Below, one piece after another: positions 9,001-55,247 of a stretch of 59,240 nucleotides of DNA. Each line of letters begins with the position of its first letter. Positions within the stretch are counted from its first letter, which is position 1. Below the pieces are notes generated by a model. That model made no database searches and was not told the DNA's origin. It saw only the letters and a program-made list of their open reading frames with translations. Both the position numbers and the translations under genes were made by a program. Source of the stretch: a virus (Duplodnaviria; Caudoviricetes); IMG/VR virus record IMGVR_UViG_3300036791_000126, positions 1-59,240 of that record; one strand, 5' to 3'.

Positions 9001-9633
9001 ATGGCAGACGAATACACGAACAAAATCGGTGATGAAACACTTGGGGTTGAAGCTTCAGATGAAGATGTAAGCGCTCAAGGTGAACACACTGAACTAGACG
9101 ACACTATCGTCTCGGGGCCTGTGCTGTCTTTTCAACCGGGGGCCGATTTTTCGCTTATCGATGTTTTCAGGGAAGAGCTACGTGAGCTAAGCGAAACACG
9201 AGATGTATACATTCCCATAAAGGGATACGAGCGAATTGGTCTGCAAGTTCGATATCATATGCCTAACAATGGCAAGGAGCTTGCAGTAATAGCTCAAAAG
9301 GTTCAGCGTGAAGTAAAAGACGTTTGGTCGCGGAACCTCTTTACAGCGATGGACACTATGATCTATCTCTGCGATGGATTGTATGTCCAACCCGAGGACG
9401 TACCTGAACCTGTGATGCTTGATCCACAGGAAACAGGTATGCCTATGATGTTCGATCCACGGTTAGCTGAAATGATGAATCTGAATGGAGAAGTAAGAAG
9501 TGCTCGTCAAGTGGTAAGAAAGTTGTTCGGTGGAAACGACATGGCTGTCATCAATCACGCTGAACGTCTACAGCGGTGGTTGCAAAACACGAAGGCTGAT
9601 CTTGAAGCAGAATTGTGGCAACTGGGGGAATAG
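9001..9633 (+). CDS. tail assembly chaperone (gpG-like)
   Basis: AAGGAG RBS; lies between tube and tape measure; ends in the GGGGGAA slippery site. Confidence 0.75.
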   Translation: MADEYTNKIGDETLGVEASDEDVSAQGEHTELDDTIVSGPVLSFQPGADFSLIDVFREELRELSETRDVYIPIKGYERIGLQVRYHMPNNGKELAVIAQKVQREVKDVWSRNLFTAMDTMIYLCDGLYVQPEDVPEPVMLDPQETGMPMMFDPRLAEMMNLNGEVRSARQVVRKLFGGNDMAVINHAERLQRWLQNTKADLEAELWQLGE

Positions 9634-28276: not shown

Positions 28277-28289
28277 TACTTGCTCCCGT

Positions 28290-28604
28290 TTAGTAACCTA
28301 GCAAACGTAGTTGTTGTTCTTCGAGTTGGACTTGTGCCATGCGTGCTTTCTTCAACCGTTCGTGGGTTCGCTTGATACTACGATCTTCTTTGCGCCGGTG
28401 TTCAAGCGCAATCAAAATTTTAGTTGCAGTTCCCAATTGAACAGAACAATGAACTCCACTCAAAATGCGGCGAAGCGTCATATGACCGACGAACGCATAT
28501 TCAGCCGCAGCTTCAAACGAGCCACACCTATCAACCAGTTCCCTGGTATGCGGCTTGATCTTGATGCAATCGACTAGCGATTTATGATACTTCTCGTAAG
28601 CCAT
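28290..28604 (-). CDS. hypothetical protein, possible HTH DNA-binding
   Basis: GSFEAAAEYAFVGHMTLRRILSG resembles an XRE-type HTH. Confidence 0.5.
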   Translation of the reverse strand: MAYEKYHKSLVDCIKIKPHTRELVDRCGSFEAAAEYAFVGHMTLRRILSGVHCSVQLGTATKILIALEHRRKEDRSIKRTHERLKKARMAQVQLEEQQLRLLGY

Positions 28605-33398: not shown

Positions 33399-33411
33399 TA
33401 TGTTCTCCCGT

Positions 33412-33585
33412 TTAAGCCACGTCTAACGTTACCTGAATGACGCCATCCTCAAGTATGACATCAGTCATTATAAGCTTGGTGACAGCCTCTTCCCCAACCA
33501 ACGTGAAGCTTACTGGAGTTGCGGGGGCTTCATCCAACTGAGCGATCAGCTCGTCCATCCAATCCTCTTGAGTCATTTCACTCAT
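33412..33585 (-). CDS. small acidic hypothetical protein (57 aa, absent from the ORF track)
   Basis: MSEMTQEDWMDELIAQLDE...TLDVA; AACGGGAGG RBS; fills the gap exactly. Confidence 0.6.
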   Translation of the reverse strand: MSEMTQEDWMDELIAQLDEAPATPVSFTLVGEEAVTKLIMTDVILEDGVIQVTLDVA

Positions 33586-33597
33586 GTTTCCTCCCGT

Positions 33598-34887
33598 TTA
33601 CCTATCTTTTGCGACAACATAATTGTCACGGAGCATCTGCTTGTAATCGCTTCCATCTTCTTGAGCGAGGCAAGGTGCGCGAAACGCGCAACGCAAGCAC
33701 TGAAAATCGTTACGGAGATTAGGATAGATACGCAGGTTGGGATCGAGCATATCCATCGCTTCGAGATACATGCGGTAACCTGCGTTCCTTAGTTGGTGTC
33801 TGTTACGACGTACCAACTTTCTGATGAAGAATGCTTCATCACCGGCATCCCGCACATACGAGATGTAGTTCTGATGTTTTTCATCGAGCGATTGAACGTC
33901 GATCCCGTTCTCTTGGATGAATGCCATAAGCATTTCGTAGGTTGGGGATTCATTCTGTCGGTCAACACTGAACAATCCTCCTCTAACCATTGTTGGGGGT
34001 TTCGGATACGTCTTTCGCATGACATTATAGATTACCTCCGAGAACTTTTCATTCTTGGAAGGAAGGTCATAATACTGTGCCTCGACTTCGGCAGCGTGCA
34101 AATAAGACGTACACTGTTCATCGGATTCTAGCTTCTCAAAGAATTCCTCATCGATTCTACTGCTTGTCTTGTGATCGATGATTCCGAATCTCTCTGACGG
34201 CGTGACGTATTGAGCATCCGTTCGACCACGCGAATGGACTTCAAGAGTCTTGCCATAATTAGGAGATTGCTCGCGTAGATCGACAGCTTTGAGAATACAA
34301 TCGTTTTCAAAATCCCAAATCGGAATTGAGAACGTGTGCTCCGTTAGGAGTATCTCAAAAGCGTCGCGCGGCTTAGCATAATCTTTGTAAGCGGTCATCA
34401 TCTGTACGCCAAGCTCTCGAAGCTCGTCGTACTTATCGCCATCCGCGTCAGGCAAAATATCCTCAAGCCCGCGCACCACGTACATAGGTGGTGCGTCTGC
34501 TACTAAAGCATGTTCGCTAGGAACGGGGCGAGGATTCAAGTCATACACACGGTCGAGCCATTCTTCTGTGACCGTGCCACCTCTCCATTGTACGTTGAAC
34601 CAAGTGAGCCAAGATTCTACAGGATCACGCCTAAAGCTCGGAGAGTAGTATTGTTCCAAAGCATAGTGGATGCCCGTTCCGAACCACAAATCTGTATTGA
34701 CGCCGTGAATATCGGCGCGCACCATAAGATTGTGGCGAGCAGGACTTGACCAATCGAAAAATCTGCGACAACGTTTGAAGTTAGCGCGGTCGGAATTATG
34801 AACGGGGATCACTTCATACTTGTCAGGTATCTCAGGTACCTTATAAGCAGCTACGACGGCGCTAGAAGTTTGTTCTTGCAAACTCAC
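33598..34887 (-). CDS. PD-(D/E)XK (Cas4/RecB-like) exonuclease
   Basis: SDRANFKRCRR, FGTGIHYALE, GRTD..IIDHKT, Q...Y, C..CAFR.PC; probable GTG start 34887 after AAGGAGG. Confidence 0.85.
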   Translation of the reverse strand: MSLQEQTSSAVVAAYKVPEIPDKYEVIPVHNSDRANFKRCRRFFDWSSPARHNLMVRADIHGVNTDLWFGTGIHYALEQYYSPSFRRDPVESWLTWFNVQWRGGTVTEEWLDRVYDLNPRPVPSEHALVADAPPMYVVRGLEDILPDADGDKYDELRELGVQMMTAYKDYAKPRDAFEILLTEHTFSIPIWDFENDCILKAVDLREQSPNYGKTLEVHSRGRTDAQYVTPSERFGIIDHKTSSRIDEEFFEKLESDEQCTSYLHAAEVEAQYYDLPSKNEKFSEVIYNVMRKTYPKPPTMVRGGLFSVDRQNESPTYEMLMAFIQENGIDVQSLDEKHQNYISYVRDAGDEAFFIRKLVRRNRHQLRNAGYRMYLEAMDMLDPNLRIYPNLRNDFQCLRCAFRAPCLAQEDGSDYKQMLRDNYVVAKDR

Positions 34888-35386
34888 TCCAAGCCTCCTT
34901 TGCTGCCTTGTCGTAAGCTCTCGCCGCATCTTCTTCGTCAACGAATGAACCCAAATAGCGATGTTTTCCATCTACCTTAATTTGTGCCATCCACTTTTTA
35001 TTACGATTAAGCCATGTAACACCTTTGAACCGTGAGGAAGTATCGGATTGTTTCTTTTGATTAGCCATTTGTTGTGAGCGTGTGGCAAGACGCATATTAC
35101 TACGTCTGCAATCAAGACCGTTTCTATCAATATGATCTATCTCAGGATCACTGGAATTAAGATCGAGAATAAATCTATGAAGATAGGTCAGCTTACTTTG
35201 TACCACTCCTACTGCATACCATTTTCCACGCTGTAGGGAGGCTACCCATATATGTTTGAGTACGCGCTCTAAATCGTCATCATCGACGAGAGCGACTTTT
35301 CCTTGCGTCAGCGGTATTTCGGCGTAAGACGCCGTTTGAGGCTGAACCGCCGATTGCGCGGTTTGTGGCGTTCCCACCAGTTCCAT
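34862..35386 (-). mobile_element. HNH-AP2 homing endonuclease
   Basis: IPLTQGKVALVDD, YLHRFIL, IDHIDRNGLDCRRSNMR, SRFKGV, YLGSF..EEDAARAYD. Confidence 0.9.
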
Positions 35387-35427
35387 GAAGCTCCCGTTTT
35401 GTGGTGGTCGCTAGGGGCGAAGGGAGG

Positions 35428-35456
35428 AGTCTAGCATAAACCGATCCCATTGTCAA
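35428..35456 (-). promoter_or_regulatory. sigma70/HrdB-type promoter for the recombination-replication genes
   Basis: TTGACA-17 nt-TAGACT with extended -10 TG. Confidence 0.8.
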
Positions 35457-35524: not shown

Positions 35525-35809
35525 TTAGTCGTTAGGAACTGGATAAATATAAAGTTCCCACTCTTCTCCTGCGCCTTCTGAACTCCACTCTATCTCGAAT
35601 GGTGCTGATGTAATCTCAAACACATCAGTCTTATAGAACAATTCCCAACCGACTTCATGGATATCTTCTTGGATACCACACATATCCTTCGTACAAATGG
35701 GTGAATCACTTTCCTCAATACCCACAAACGGACAAATGGAGACTGGTGTACAAGCCCCACTTTCCACTATAACTCTTATCCTATGACCGTCTCTGTGTTT
35801 CACACTCAT
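35525..35809 (-). CDS. hypothetical protein
   Basis: ACGGGAG RBS before ATG 35809. Confidence 0.6.
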   Translation of the reverse strand: MSVKHRDGHRIRVIVESGACTPVSICPFVGIEESDSPICTKDMCGIQEDIHEVGWELFYKTDVFEITSAPFEIEWSSEGAGEEWELYIYPVPND

Positions 35810-36006
35810 CGTTGCTCCCGTCTCCATTCCCAGATGAAACTTCCCGTTATCATCGTGCGCGACATAGCACGGCGCTCAACATGTTCAAGCCATGCCCAAT
35901 CTCCATCATTGAGATGGTGTGGTATGAATGCAAAGACACGATGCCAATAACGAAACTTACGTTCAATAGCATCACGTTCCTCTTGTGTCTGACCGCGCCA
36001 TCTCAC
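35806..36006 (-). CDS. hypothetical protein
   Basis: 66 aa; WHRVFAFIP...WAWLEHVERR pattern seen in small phage proteins; 4-nt overlaps. Confidence 0.6.
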   Translation of the reverse strand: MRWRGQTQEERDAIERKFRYWHRVFAFIPHHLNDGDWAWLEHVERRAMSRTMITGSFIWEWRREQR

Positions 36007-36353: not shown

Positions 36354-37997
36354 TTAATCCTCTTCAACGCCAAAGATCTGCTTGAACCAACCGTGTTTCG
36401 TGTTGACGGATTCGAGGACGCGATAGTCTACCGTGCCCTGAGCACGAATGTAGATTAGCTGGCAAGCCTCGGTCTGACCAGGACGATACACACGACCAAT
36501 CGCCTGCTTATTCTTAGCGGGCGACCAGTGCTGATCGAGAAAGATTGCCCTGTGTGCGCTAGTCAAGTTGATAGACTCAGCGCCAAGATCAAGCGTAGAC
36601 AAGAACACTTGGTGTTTCTTCTGAGGCCAGATTTCATGCCAGTATTCGTAACGCTGTTTCTCATTCATCTTAGCCTGTAAGTGCAAGTAGGTGATACCCT
36701 TTTTATCAAGCCTTGCTTTGAGCAGTTCGAGCGGCTGCTTGAAGTTAGAGAATACGACGATTTGATCGTGCCTATCCTCGTCCCATTCCAGACCCTCGAT
36801 AACCTCCATCGCTGCATCAAGCTTTGAGCTAGGCTCAGTCAGCTTGACTTCTATAACACGACGCTCCAAATCTTCATTCCAAGCATCGCCGATTACCTCA
36901 GGCGTAGCTACCGCGATCTGTCTACAACGATTCAACATAGACAGAACCGTAGGACTGTGAAGCGGAACGCCCTTTGCATCCAGAGTATGCAGATACTCTA
37001 CAATCTCCGCATACATCTTTCTTTGGATCGGACTCAGCTCAACAGGAATCACAGTCTCGATAGGCTCTGCGATATCAGGGAAGCATTCGATCATTGTCCG
37101 ACGAACGCCTACCTGATTGACAAGCTCCTTAAACTGAGTTTCCGTCTCAGGCTTGATTCCCACGATCTTTCTGTATCCACCAACATCGTCCTGTTCACAG
37201 AAGTGATCGCGGAATTGCCAATAACCAGTTCCACCCACGATATTCGCGTGAGGACTACCTTGCTTGCCTGAGTACAGGAAGTCCAGCAGACTCCAAATCT
37301 CCGATGGATTATTGACGAACCCTGTACCAGTCATGATGTGCTTGTAAGCTGTCTTGATCTTCTTGATGTTGCGTGTCCACTGAGTGTCAGGATTCTTCAT
37401 CCTGTGAGCCTCATCCACGACAACCATATCCCAATGCTTAGTGAGAAGCGCCTTACACTTGGGATCAGTCATCTTATAGAGGCCCGTCTCCTCATCGAAT
37501 ACGGACATCTTGATCTTCTTACCAGTCACTTCATTCACGACAGTCTCTTTGACCTGCTGTGGAATGCAAGCCTTATTGGTGAAGCAGTTGTAATGTGCGA
37601 GCACTACAACCGGCCTCATATGCAGCGGATTAGGAAGCTGCACGTCCCAGGGAGTCACCTTACTACCGAGAACCAACTGAGTCTTCGTAGTAGAGACAGT
37701 AAAGATATCCCATTCAGGCAACGTCTCCCAGATGCTTTCGAGGTACGGCCCTTTACCAGTTTTAGTAGAAATTACCAAGACACGTGGATTCGGGATATGC
37801 TTTGTCTTTAGTTCCCAAAGCCACTCAGCAGTCGAAGTCTTAAAGCTACCCATCTCCGACCAGTTAGCCGAACCGTGAGGAATCTCGGACATATACGAAA
37901 TGTCCTCCATTTGAAAACTCCGCTTCACAAACTTGCCACTGGGCTTCGCCTTAATCAGCGGCTTACGCACCGGAATCTTGCTTGCGGTTTCAGTCAT
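36354..37997 (-). CDS. SNF2-family DEAH-box helicase
   Basis: EMGSFKT, VVVDEAHRMKN, MTGT, SSKLDA, GAESINLT, QAIGRVYRPGQ. Confidence 0.92.
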   Translation of the reverse strand: MTETASKIPVRKPLIKAKPSGKFVKRSFQMEDISYMSEIPHGSANWSEMGSFKTSTAEWLWELKTKHIPNPRVLVISTKTGKGPYLESIWETLPEWDIFTVSTTKTQLVLGSKVTPWDVQLPNPLHMRPVVVLAHYNCFTNKACIPQQVKETVVNEVTGKKIKMSVFDEETGLYKMTDPKCKALLTKHWDMVVVDEAHRMKNPDTQWTRNIKKIKTAYKHIMTGTGFVNNPSEIWSLLDFLYSGKQGSPHANIVGGTGYWQFRDHFCEQDDVGGYRKIVGIKPETETQFKELVNQVGVRRTMIECFPDIAEPIETVIPVELSPIQRKMYAEIVEYLHTLDAKGVPLHSPTVLSMLNRCRQIAVATPEVIGDAWNEDLERRVIEVKLTEPSSKLDAAMEVIEGLEWDEDRHDQIVVFSNFKQPLELLKARLDKKGITYLHLQAKMNEKQRYEYWHEIWPQKKHQVFLSTLDLGAESINLTSAHRAIFLDQHWSPAKNKQAIGRVYRPGQTEACQLIYIRAQGTVDYRVLESVNTKHGWFKQIFGVEED

Positions 37998-38167
37998 GTC
38001 ACCTCCCCATTTCTAGTATACAGCCGTTTGTTGGTACAATCTCTGTTCATGCAGCCAAACAATCTACGTGTTTTCAGTTCACCACGATTTTGGTTACCAA
38101 CCACAACCATGTCATGCCCGCACTGAGGGCAGGCCGGAACTGGTTTGATTGGTTTTGTCTTAAACAT
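37994..38167 (-). CDS. small Zn-ribbon protein
   Basis: CPQCG...FGCMNRDC. Confidence 0.55.
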   Translation of the reverse strand: MFKTKPIKPVPACPQCGHDMVVVGNQNRGELKTRRLFGCMNRDCTNKRLYTRNGEVT

Positions 38168-38381
38168 CGTGTTCAGTAAGACCCAACAGTTGAGAACATT
38201 TAGCACAAAACCGAGGATCTTTCAACTTACGCATTTCTCTGCCATCAAGCAGAACCATGTTTGTAAGTGGTTGACCACATTGTGTAGTACCACTTCGTCT
38301 AGGCGCAGGAAAGCTACCAACCAAATGAATCATGCCGGTTGTGCTTTTGTAGTGACTGGGTTTCTTAGCTGTCGCACGCAT
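38160..38381 (-). CDS. hypothetical Zn-binding protein
   Basis: H...TQCG...CAKC; AACGGGAG RBS. Confidence 0.6.
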   Translation of the reverse strand: MRATAKKPSHYKSTTGMIHLVGSFPAPRRSGTTQCGQPLTNMVLLDGREMRKLKDPRFCAKCSQLLGLTEHDV

Positions 38382-38382
38382 G

Positions 38383-38874
38383 TCACTCTCCCGTTAGATC
38401 AATGAAAATTTGAGCGAGAGCTTGTACCTTCGTCATGCCTCGCTCCCGATACAAATAAACATACCGACGTGAGTAACGTCGGCATTCTTTGTTACGACGG
38501 CAGAATATGGAATTGCGTGGTGAACGAGTGATTCGCTCACCACACACGATACAAACAGGTCTATCAGATTGTGCAAGCTTTAATGCTTTCCAGACATTTC
38601 CTGCAACCACCTTGCCATTCATTCTGCCATAGACCATGTAATACTCTATTGCGTCTGCATTAGCCGCAAGAGATGTTTCAAGTTTTACTTTGCTCAAAGC
38701 CCTCAGTTGTTCATCCGATGGCGAGCACGTAAAACAAAACCCCGTTACGGGGTTAATTTCATCGTAATCTACAAAGTCACCACAGTCAGGACATACCTCA
38801 ACTGCTGTGGTTGTGTTTAAAGTTTCGTGAGATGGGGTAGCGCCAGAAACCCACCGATCCGACGCATACCCCAT
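38383..38874 (-). CDS. hypothetical Cys-rich protein
   Basis: CPDCG, CFTC, CIVCG, FCRRNKEC; the start lies inside a hairpin and is uncertain. Confidence 0.6.
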   Translation of the reverse strand: MGYASDRWVSGATPSHETLNTTTAVEVCPDCGDFVDYDEINPVTGFCFTCSPSDEQLRALSKVKLETSLAANADAIEYYMVYGRMNGKVVAGNVWKALKLAQSDRPVCIVCGERITRSPRNSIFCRRNKECRRYSRRYVYLYRERGMTKVQALAQIFIDLTGE

Positions 38875-38935
38875 CTCACTTATGGGCGCAAGTTCCTACC
38901 ATCAAACGGGAGCAAGATGGCAGGACGCAGCCGTA
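38822..38935 (-). ncRNA. candidate small regulatory RNA or structured leader with an anti-RBS loop
   Basis: Starts just after a consensus promoter; 10-bp stem with loop UUGCUCCCGUUU, then a 13-bp stem (38827-38879). Confidence 0.5.
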
Positions 38936-38940
38936 CCCCA

Positions 38941-38969
38941 ATACTAGCACATGCAGGGGCATTTGTCAA
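38941..38969 (-). promoter_or_regulatory. sigma70/HrdB-type promoter
   Basis: TTGACA-17 nt-TAGTAT with extended -10 TG. Confidence 0.8.
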
Positions 38970-39160
38970 GCCCTTGATTCAAGTGGTCTGTGCGGCTCAA
39001 GTGAACCGTGGGTAATGCTCGGGACAACCCAGCTCCACTTTTCGCGGCCCTCACTTGAAACAACCAGCACAGGACTAAACCCGAGGTCGATCAGGTTGAA
39101 GATATAATCCTCACCCCAAGTTGCAACCTCACGATCAATGAACTGTTCAAGTGTCATCAT
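38966..39160 (-). CDS. hypothetical protein
   Basis: AGGAGG RBS; 64 aa. Confidence 0.6.
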   Translation of the reverse strand: MMTLEQFIDREVATWGEDYIFNLIDLGFSPVLVVSSEGREKWSWVVPSITHGSLEPHRPLESRA

Positions 39161-42907: not shown

Positions 42908-43072
42908 GTTTCTCCCGTTGGTCTGGCTGTGCGGCCGTTGGTTTGATCGGTACGGGGTTGCCAAAAGTCAACGCGTGGGCAACTTGACGAAAGGCAGCAC
43001 AGGAGCAGCCTGAGTAGTGGTTTGTGGGTTACGTGATTCAGCGGGGCTGTACTTCTCCCGGTCACTTGGCAC

Positions 43073-45489: not shown

Positions 45490-45524
45490 TTAAGTTTTCT
45501 CCCGTTGTTTGTTGTTGGTTTGTG

Positions 45525-45701: not shown

Positions 45702-45731
45702 TTTAGTTGGACGCTCCCGTTGTTTGTGTGG

Positions 45732-54749: not shown

Positions 54750-55247
54750 ATGATAGTTGAAATCCCTCTTTCACAAGATAAGACTGCATACATTAGTGCT
54801 CGACAATTTGAGAAAGTGTCGAAGCATAAATGGTTTGCATTCTGGAGTGGAAAAGGATGGTATGCGATTGCGAATATACACGGAAGGACTGTCCTTCTTC
54901 ATCGTTTCATTATGGATCGAAAAACGGGAGATGGAATGCAGATAGATCATATCGATGGAGATGGTTTAAACTGTGTAGACAGTAATCTCAGACTGGCGAC
55001 TAATCAACAGAATTCATTCAATCAGAAAAAAGCTGGTGGAATGACTTCCAAATATAAAGGTGTTTCATGGGATAACTGGAAATGTAAGTGGGTAGTATAC
55101 ATCAAAATAAACGGGAGAAATAAAAATTTGGGTCGTTTTAATTCTGAAGAAGAAGCAGCCAAAGCTTATGATAAAGCTGCTGTTGAATTCTTTGGGGAGT
55201 TTGCAAGACTCAATTTTCCGAGAGAGGGGGTGATTTTAAATAGATGA
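54750..55247 (+). mobile_element. HNH-AP2 homing endonuclease
   Basis: EIPLSQDK, LLHRFIM, IDHIDGDGLNCVDSNLR, SKYKGV, NLGRF.SEEEAAKAYD; AT-rich; start could be GTG 54735. Confidence 0.9.

Follow-up and report, generated by a model that had tools for sequence, protein, structure and literature searches.

The stretch of viral DNA analyzed here (the window) is a complete IMG/VR virus record of 59,240 bp (IMGVR_UViG_3300036791_000126; Duplodnaviria; Caudoviricetes), with structural genes on the + strand at both ends and a − strand block of early and replication genes at approximately 22.5–48.5 kb. Inside this block, a 91-nt gap between a gene for a 64-aa protein (39160–38966, −) and a gene for a 163-aa zinc-ribbon protein holds an element whose first hairpin, H1, carries a loop complementary to a multi-copy motif, AACGGGAG. 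The question raised by this locus is whether one phage RNA loop could govern a whole set of genes through their ribosome binding sites (RBS), as the initial annotation supposed when it described the element as a candidate small RNA (sRNA). Our comparisons make it likely that the loop pairs with a lineage-private, extended Shine-Dalgarno (SD) sequence of early mRNAs and controls the set at the level of translation, and among the sequences compared the decisive result is that loop and motif covary between three lineages.

The H1 hairpin and its complementary ribosome-site motif

The element begins with a promoter that scored 10 of 12 consensus matches with the TG extension present (38969–38941, −) and has a predicted transcription start at about 38934 on the − strand. 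The predicted RNA opens with H1, whose inner stem arms are UCCUGCCAUC (38925–38916) and GAUGGUAGGA (38903–38894), with one G-U pair on the − strand, and a second hairpin, H2, begins 5 nt after H1. Promoter, 10-bp hairpin and second hairpin were all recovered, by promoter scan and folding, where the initial annotation had placed them, and H2 gained eight pairs over the 13 noted there, for 21. The − strand assigned to the RNA also held up, both from G-U stem pairs across relatives (see below) and from the folds, in which the − strand RNA reaches −62.2 kcal/mol (z −7.2) and the + strand −45.2 kcal/mol (z −4.2), a difference of 17 kcal/mol. No Rfam family reached its gathering score anywhere in the window, C4 antisense RNA included, and at E ≤10 in 38750–39000 only two models matched, one of a microRNA and one of a snoRNA, both by chance.

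H1 recurs in related phage contigs. A set of 27 distinct promoter-plus-H1 sequences was built from an IMG/VR pattern scan (72 stretches, about 16 of them true family members and the rest mostly chance) and from zinc-ribbon-anchored searches of IMG/VR and metagenome contigs; a second IMG/VR pattern scan returned 49 stretches with seven true loci, all on contigs already reached by a helicase search. All 27 elements have a TTGAC-N15-TGnTAnnnT promoter before H1 and a loop of 10–14 nt, and their stem sequences differ. The loop holds UCCCGUU in 27/27 and CUCCCGUU in 26/27 of them, and a loop variant, UUCCCGUUU, was seen in L176, where the flanking DNA is too short for motif comparison. MAFFT misaligned the stems of the H1 regions and gave no RNAalifold structure, and it was replaced by an ungapped, loop-anchored alignment and a covariance model. 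In the loop-anchored alignment of seven elements, all nine stem pairs show compensatory change and 90.5% of cells are paired compared to 45.8% after shuffling, with none of 500 shuffles reaching the observed scores and slid registers giving 32–54% paired. When the covariance model, with its bias towards structure, was used to align 14 distinct rows, 88.8% of cells were paired compared to 47.8% when shuffled. The sense strand carries G-U at 28 of 182 inner-stem pairs, which fixes the strand of the RNA. Each genome or locus holding the H1 region gives one strong covariance-model match (E <0.05); weak matches on the opposite strand correspond to the ribosome sites. Relatives identified by their SNF2 helicase (64–73% identity) have a single copy of CTCCCGTT on the sense strand before the helicase gene in all six loci that reach that far, the remaining copies in those loci being AACGGGAG on the sense strand. 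On this comparative evidence, H1 is a selected structured RNA on the − strand.

The window holds 15 copies of AACGGGAG where 1.42 are expected, a number reached in none of 100 shuffles, with 12 on the − strand and three on the + strand. Nine copies sit 4–12 nt upstream of a start that opens an open reading frame (ORF) of at least 55 aa, and a tenth start, at 35809, has GACGGGAG (Table 1), in agreement with the roughly nine starts first listed as sharing the motif; the other six copies are not upstream of any start opening an ORF of at least 40 aa. Many of the motif-bearing genes are small ORFs and HNH endonuclease genes, and a number of further early promoters of this type run directly into a first gene with the private site. 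The exact 13-nt complement of the loop reported at the DNA polymerase RBS was confirmed, as the 13-mer AAACGGGAGCAAG occurs exactly twice in the window, at the polymerase start (28279–28291, −) and as the H1 loop (38904–38916, +), and the polymerase site ranks first among 88 start regions by duplex energy (−23.1 kcal/mol). When only the loop was paired with these regions, 12 of the 88 reached −13.5 kcal/mol or lower, 11 of them in the early block, compared to 2.1 ± 2.0 for shuffled loops, none of 300 of which reached 12. The initial annotation had set this motif against ordinary GGAGG sites at structural genes; the structural genes do use such sites, but many early-block genes use them as well. 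Since many window genes, structural and early, have ordinary AGGAGG(TGA) sites (by a rough gene list), the host reads a canonical SD, and AACGGGAG is an additional, extended GGGAG form.

The motif is also abundant in the closer relatives (the near clade). Four relatives' records hold 10–15 copies of AACGGGAG each and a fifth holds four, with 0–1 copies of a reversed control pattern, and in G007, the record of loci L104 and L127, ACGGGAG occurs 37 times, 31 on one strand and 26 within the first 20 kb. Across 14 near-clade loci, 141 copies of ACGGGAG are sense, 89 of which are at ribosome-site positions, compared to 16 that are antisense, and the spacing from motif to start peaks at 4–8 nt. As a side observation, many early genes of G007 use the private site; in the window it is roughly a fifth.

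Loop and motif in distant lineages

An alignment-based helicase search reached 25 more distant loci at 40–48% identity. These loci have the zinc-ribbon homologue beside the helicase, no promoter/H1/H2 leader before the zinc-ribbon gene, and 0–2 copies of ACGGGAG per locus. A k-mer census of start regions revealed that one distant subclade, farA (L134, with the same sequence as L136, L135, L141 and L149), uses (A)CCAAGGGAGG, and that each locus has a single antisense copy of it. This copy, CCUCCCUUGG, is in a hairpin approximately 10 nt past a TTGACA-N14-TGCTAnnnT promoter, a second hairpin follows, and the stems of the first covary (GUGUAC/GUACAC, CAGUAC/GUACUU, CGCUUGC/GUGAGCG). In L134, CAAGGGAG has 10 copies against 0.49 expected, nine of them sense and the single antisense copy being the loop. 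In its sister lineage, farB (L144 and L145), the loop is CCUCCCUGG, which lacks one U of the farA loop, and the ribosome sites are CCAGGGAGG, which lack one A; the motif copies of L145 are before start codons in 7/7 cases, and CAGGGAGG occurs there seven times against 0.36 expected, six times sense and once antisense, again as the loop. Promoters of the far clade were not called by the scan (their −10 hexamer has three matches to TATAAT) and were identified by the pattern TTGACA-17-TGnTAnnnT. The second hairpin of L135 was called terminator-like, with 15 pairs and the tail TCGTTTTATG, which would fit a stand-alone RNA of about 70 nt; the second hairpin of L134 was not called.

The matched pairs of loop and motif are CUCCCGUU with ACGGGAG in the near clade, CCUCCCUUGG with CCAAGGGAGG in farA and CCUCCCUGG with CCAGGGAGG in farB. 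Sense copies per kb of ACGGGAG, AAGGGAG and CAGGGAG were 0.527, 0.093 and 0.060 in the near clade (loop CUCCCGU), 0.068, 0.492 and 0.109 in farA, 0.044, 0.132 and 0.439 in farB, and 0.035, 0.142 and 0.089 in the other distant loci, where no loop was found. Counted at ribosome sites, the same three motifs gave 89, 13 and 6 in the near clade, 0, 27 and 0 in farA, and 1, 2 and 10 in farB. The covariation of loop and RBS in relatives that the initial annotation had suggested looking for is therefore present, with three lineages having three loops, each lineage being enriched at ribosome sites for the motif complementary to its own loop and for neither of the other two.

On the helicase tree, the near clade forms one branch (Shimodaira-Hasegawa-like approximate likelihood-ratio test, SH-aLRT, 99), and farA and farB are sisters within a separate clade. 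In the stretches fetched, the lineages between the near clade and farA/farB lack both features, relatives without the hairpin have no private motif either, and no third or fourth loop/motif pair was found in other distant lineages. L123, the earliest branch of the near clade, is without promoter, H1, H2 and motif. Before its zinc-ribbon gene, at 812–1101, there is instead a hairpin with a U-run (CGGAAG...CTTCCGTTATTTTTT).

The motif in H1 can also be read on the + strand, where AAACGGGAGCAAG is followed, with a 4-nt spacer, by the ATG (38917) of a 32-aa ORF, and it could be the ribosome site of that ORF, or a DNA-level operator or promoter element. We give this next to no credence. After the antisense motif, no start opens an ORF of at least 40 aa in G001, G003 or G004, G002 has a 7-aa frame by eye, and L135 has no ATG there; the + strand gene that the initial annotation had kept in view as an alternative is unconserved in G001–G004. 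Furthermore, the covarying stems contain G-U pairs, which on the + strand would turn into A-C mismatches, and the strand bias of the motif (141 to 16) argues against a DNA-level site.

Table 1. Positions of the promoter, the two hairpins, the zinc-ribbon gene and the private ribosome sites in the window.
Feature	Position	Strand	Details
Sigma-70-type promoter, extended −10	38941–38969	−	TTGACA 38969–38964, 17-nt spacer ending TGC, TAGTAT 38946–38941
H1 domain	38885–38932	−	Outer stem 38932–38926/38890–38885; inner 10-bp stem 38925–38916/38903–38894 (folds)
H1 loop, 12 nt, UUGCUCCCGUUU, putative anti-RBS seed	38904–38915	−	UCCCGUU invariant in family
H2, 21-bp hairpin	38827–38879	−	Holds zinc-ribbon start codon (38874); no U-tract after (fold)
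Zinc-ribbon gene, 163 aa	38383–38874	−	CPxCG...GWCxxC...CxVCG...FCRR..CRRYSRRYVYLY
AACGGGAG site of DNA polymerase gene, start 28276	28283–28290	−	13-nt AAACGGGAGCAAG (28279–28291) complementary to loop
AACGGGAG site, start 33398 (74 aa)	33405–33412	−	
AACGGGAG site, start 33585 (57 aa)	33591–33598	−	
AACGGGAG site, start 35386 (174-aa HNH endonuclease, PHROGs)	35391–35398	−	First gene past promoter at 35456
GACGGGAG site, start 35809 (94 aa)	35815–35822	−	Duplex −20.8 kcal/mol, rank 2
AACGGGAG site, start 38381 (73 aa)	38388–38395	−	Same predicted transcript as H1, ~510 nt downstream
AACGGGAG site, start 42907 (55 aa)	42912–42919	−	
AACGGGAG site, start 45489 (94 aa)	45499–45506	−	
AACGGGAG site, start 45701 (58 aa)	45714–45721	−	
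AACGGGAG site, start 54936 (103-aa ORF opening MQIDHIDGDGLN)	54923–54930	+	Only site outside early block

Leader context and possible modes of action

In the mechanism we favour, the strong host-type promoter at 38969–38941 (−) would drive an RNA that opens with the two hairpins and is made early. Its H1 loop would present CUCCCGUUU, the Watson-Crick complement of (A)AACGGGAG, to the private motif 4–8 nt upstream of about ten early-block starts, often that of the first gene after an early promoter, and would pair with these sites over 7–9 nt, or 13 nt at the polymerase site. A 9-bp pairing, stronger than that of GGGAG with the 16S tail, would compete with 30S binding, and translation of the marked genes would fall as the stable two-hairpin RNA accumulates, as an RNA counterpart of early-gene shut-off. 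We infer that the RNA is made, and it could act in trans either in the form of the intact leader or as a piece of 93–135 nt released by processing or early termination. A search for sequencing runs listed two DNA data sets, both possible sources of the contig, and none of RNA. Repression is probably the sign, rather than activation or stabilization, because of the analogy with UCCC-loop sRNAs (PMC2790875), c4 (PMC12197685) and T4 RegB (PMC1702504) as the relevant passages of these sources describe them. A doubtful extension of the proposal is that the co-evolving key/lock pairs (AAC/GUU, CAA/UUG, CA/UG) might, besides timing the phage's own early genes, also silence those of a co-infecting relative that shares the key, with divergence of the key as the escape, which would amount to RNA heteroimmunity among lytic phages, exerted on a whole gene set at translation initiation.

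Several observations weigh against control of the set by the loop. At −12 kcal/mol the pairing excess is not significant, with 23 of 300 loop shuffles reaching the observed number, and G005 has H1 yet only four AACGGGAG copies in 38 kb. The motif is at the polymerase start in one of nine genomes (the window only), at the helicase start in three of 10 (the window not among them) and at the start of a 715-aa gene in one of 10, a comparison that rests on our own rough start calls; as it is not kept at orthologous genes, there is no conserved essential target. The idea that the phage had given one gene class a private RBS is therefore borne out for the motif, which is private and enriched, but not for the class, which is not fixed, as orthologues do not keep the motif. 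The flanks of the loop show no covariation either, pairing with a genome's own loop extending by 0.53 nt compared to 0.44 nt with the loops of other genomes, and so the conserved seed is 7–9 nt; the longer, 13-nt match at the polymerase is peculiar to the window genome and may be partly chance. In farA the predicted stem absorbs part of the complementary stretch, leaving a 6-nt loop. Only about two loop/motif co-change events are found on the helicase tree, each consisting of one loop and many dispersed sites. Lastly, the RNA of the window and the near clade may exist only as an mRNA leader.

This last point depends on H2. The terminator scan made no call at H2 in the window, and a U-tract is also absent after H2 in the near clade. 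In relatives the second hairpin begins 0–5 nt after H1 and spans 48–84 nt with 20–33 pairs, as parsed in 14 of the 15 elements, whose H2 sequences are unrelated to one another, and the fifteenth element (L023) also has H2 in a separate fold. The zinc-ribbon start codon is inside H2, in its loop or either arm, in most near-clade elements. With the start codon inside H2 and no U-tract, the window element serves the zinc-ribbon gene as a 5′ leader at the least. It could be nothing else than a leader acting in cis, with H1 as a 5′ stabilizer, H2 sequestering the zinc-ribbon start and the loop pairing only with sites on the same transcript, and the promoter does head a − strand gene run of about 16 kb with five sites (38395, 35398, 33598, 33412, 28290). 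We consider this unlikely, given that six − strand copies of AACGGGAG are upstream of the promoter (45721, 45506, 44809, 42919, 42266, 40331), the site at 54923 is on the opposite strand, and the next downstream site is approximately 430 to >2000 nt away among relatives. In farA, moreover, about 800 nt and a further gene separate the element from the zinc-ribbon gene, and in L135 the element ends in the terminator-like hairpin.

The direction of control could also be reversed, with AACGGGAG-bearing early mRNAs acting on the H1 leader through cleavage or a change in H2, and the leader sensing the early-mRNA load and setting the zinc-ribbon/helicase/replication operon. Many sites facing one loop, a fluid set of motif-bearing genes facing a fixed loop, and an H2 that hides the start codon of the first gene would all suit such an arrangement, but no alternative fold linking H1 loop occupancy to H2 opening was found, and the farA element is not fused to a coding region. 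Both the reversed direction and the sensing role that goes with it seem quite improbable to us, and we prefer the loop acting on the sites.

In nut/put antitermination, two promoter-proximal hairpins act on the transcribing polymerase. H1 and H2 are likewise two adjacent hairpins approximately 10 nt past a strong promoter heading a long operon, the next gene encodes an arginine-rich zinc-ribbon protein, and the pair could be a protein- or polymerase-binding RNA whose complementarity to ribosome sites is incidental. This would leave unexplained both the complementarity of the loop to the multi-copy motif of its clade and the co-change in three lineages, and we regard it as very unlikely. Zinc-ribbon homologues adjoin the helicase even in relatives without H1, and the protein's function is thus independent of H1. 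No Pfam family matched the protein at E ≤0.01, and a single-protein homology search with it returned nothing, an alignment of zinc-ribbon proteins being needed to reach homologues.

Further features of the leader were noted along the way. A terminator-like hairpin, AACCCCGTAACGGGGTT then TTGTTTTACG, is located at 38738–38754 (−) within the zinc-ribbon coding sequence, approximately 180–195 nt past the predicted start; its use would produce a leader RNA of about 195 nt with H1 and H2, and it is possibly a coding by-product because it overlaps the conserved VTG(W/F)C codons. The N-terminal extension encoded in the 3′ arm of H2 keeps PL(P/R)H in L002, L004, L017, L032 and L066 despite their differing H2 sequences, which places the arm under both coding and pairing constraint, and this dual constraint may explain the C-rich likeness of the H2 3′ arm to the H1 loop. 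The H1 loop might also form a pseudoknot with the G-rich 5′ arm of H2, but the complementarity, judged by eye, is good only in L023 and L103 among the elements compared and is poor in L005, L008 and the window. A different leader, unrelated to H1, was seen in 14 other viral loci (L011, L021, L027, L033, L035, L039, L042, L044, L049, L053, L059, L068, L075 and L081), where a TTGACAGG...TGTTA promoter precedes a TTAAGGAAT...TTCTTAA hairpin and this is followed by CTCCCGTTAACCGAGACCTATGGGAGG, whose CUCCC can pair with GGGAG of the SD; from its sequence it looks like an SD-sequestering leader acting in cis.

Among other genes of the window, a 70-aa protein two genes past H1 (37994–38206, −) has a weak Ogr/Delta-like zinc-finger match (E 0.003, under the curated cut-off) and may be a late-gene activator in the H1 operon. 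The late-region ORF at 54936–55247 (+) is HNH-like by eye only, with no family search. Mobile genes, namely the HNH gene at 34862–35386 and ORF 54936, seem to adopt or spread the motif.

The H1 region has no blastn match among GenBank phages and the window DNA polymerase has a best identity of 28% to them; judged by these searches, there is no close cultured phage relative. The sole match in a genome collection is L155, a 1543-bp contig of the phage family binned in a Candidatus Saccharimonadales metagenome-assembled genome (MAG), which contains the 3′ part of the zinc-ribbon gene, a AAACGGGAG site and, at 77% identity, the start of the helicase. The contig either hints at the host or is a piece of phage DNA that was mis-binned. 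Elsewhere in the MAG there is no enrichment of the motif (10 copies compared to 53 of the reversed control pattern), and so the motif is private to the phages. In L134, the RNA element and the zinc-ribbon gene are separated by a gene with a transglycosylase-like domain (9093–9434; PF06737, E 3e-9); we take this domain to be one of actinobacterial Rpf proteins, a weak host hint at most.

Comparison with known systems

The c4 RNA of phages P1 and P7 is cut by RNase P from the leader of the operon it controls. As the passages on c4 in a 2025 phage sRNA review describe it, complementary sequences presented in its loops pair around the ribosome binding site of the mRNA and block translation, and a loop/target specificity that differs between related phages results in heteroimmunity (PMC12197685). 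The element described here is similarly phage-encoded, has a loop complementary to ribosome sites 4–12 nt before nine starts, and occupies a leader position. It differs in that c4 controls one operon (icd/ant) in temperate phages, whereas here one loop matches 10–37 dispersed sites, with no sign of lysogeny genes near the element and no match to the covariance model of the Rfam C4 antisense RNA family (P1/P7 c4, P4 CI).

The RNAs RsaE and RNAIII of Gram-positive bacteria use an unpaired, C-rich UCCC loop that binds the SD and prevents formation of the initiation complex, with many targets for one seed, according to the account of them in PMC2790875. H1 resembles the RsaE class in its invariant unpaired UCCC (27/27) and in stems that vary while the structure is kept. 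RsaE and RNAIII, however, are chromosomal and pair with the ordinary SD of their host, while here the predicted RNA is viral, placed at +10 of an early promoter and without an Rfam match, and its seed reaches 2–4 nt past GGGAG, where each lineage has an extension of its own (AAC, CAA or CA) co-evolving with the loop. Inactivation of early mRNAs as a group through the SD sequence, as proposed here, is also seen with T4 RegB and RegA; RegB cuts GGAG in the SD regions of early mRNAs and needs a longer conserved context, in the part of PMC1702504 that deals with it. Those effectors are proteins, whereas the effector proposed here is an RNA that would recognize its sites by base pairing. PAK_P3 sRNA2 was considered as a regulator of many ribosome sites and set aside, as the pertinent passages of PMC4933390 have the stretch in question shared with tRNA T-loops and the phage targets as single ones.

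The few phage examples in the sections of the 2025 review that treat them control one gene or one operon (PMC12197685), and neither these sections nor the article texts covered by full-text literature searches describe a phage RNA that is complementary to a private ribosome-site motif spread over the genome. If the proposal is true, a virus marks a group of genes with a private RBS extension and governs the group by one RNA loop, and on at least two occasions a change of the loop was accompanied by that of dozens of sites, which would be a compact natural code for orthogonal translational control. It would also be a new way for phages to time early genes or exclude relatives, and a source of ready matched seed/site pairs for synthetic biology. 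Such systems can be found from sequence alone, by looking for motifs that recur at start sites and have their sole antisense copy in a covarying hairpin loop. Set beside c4, the RsaE class and the T4 proteins, the pairing principle is known, and the arrangement of one loop and many sites co-evolving in a virus appears to be new.

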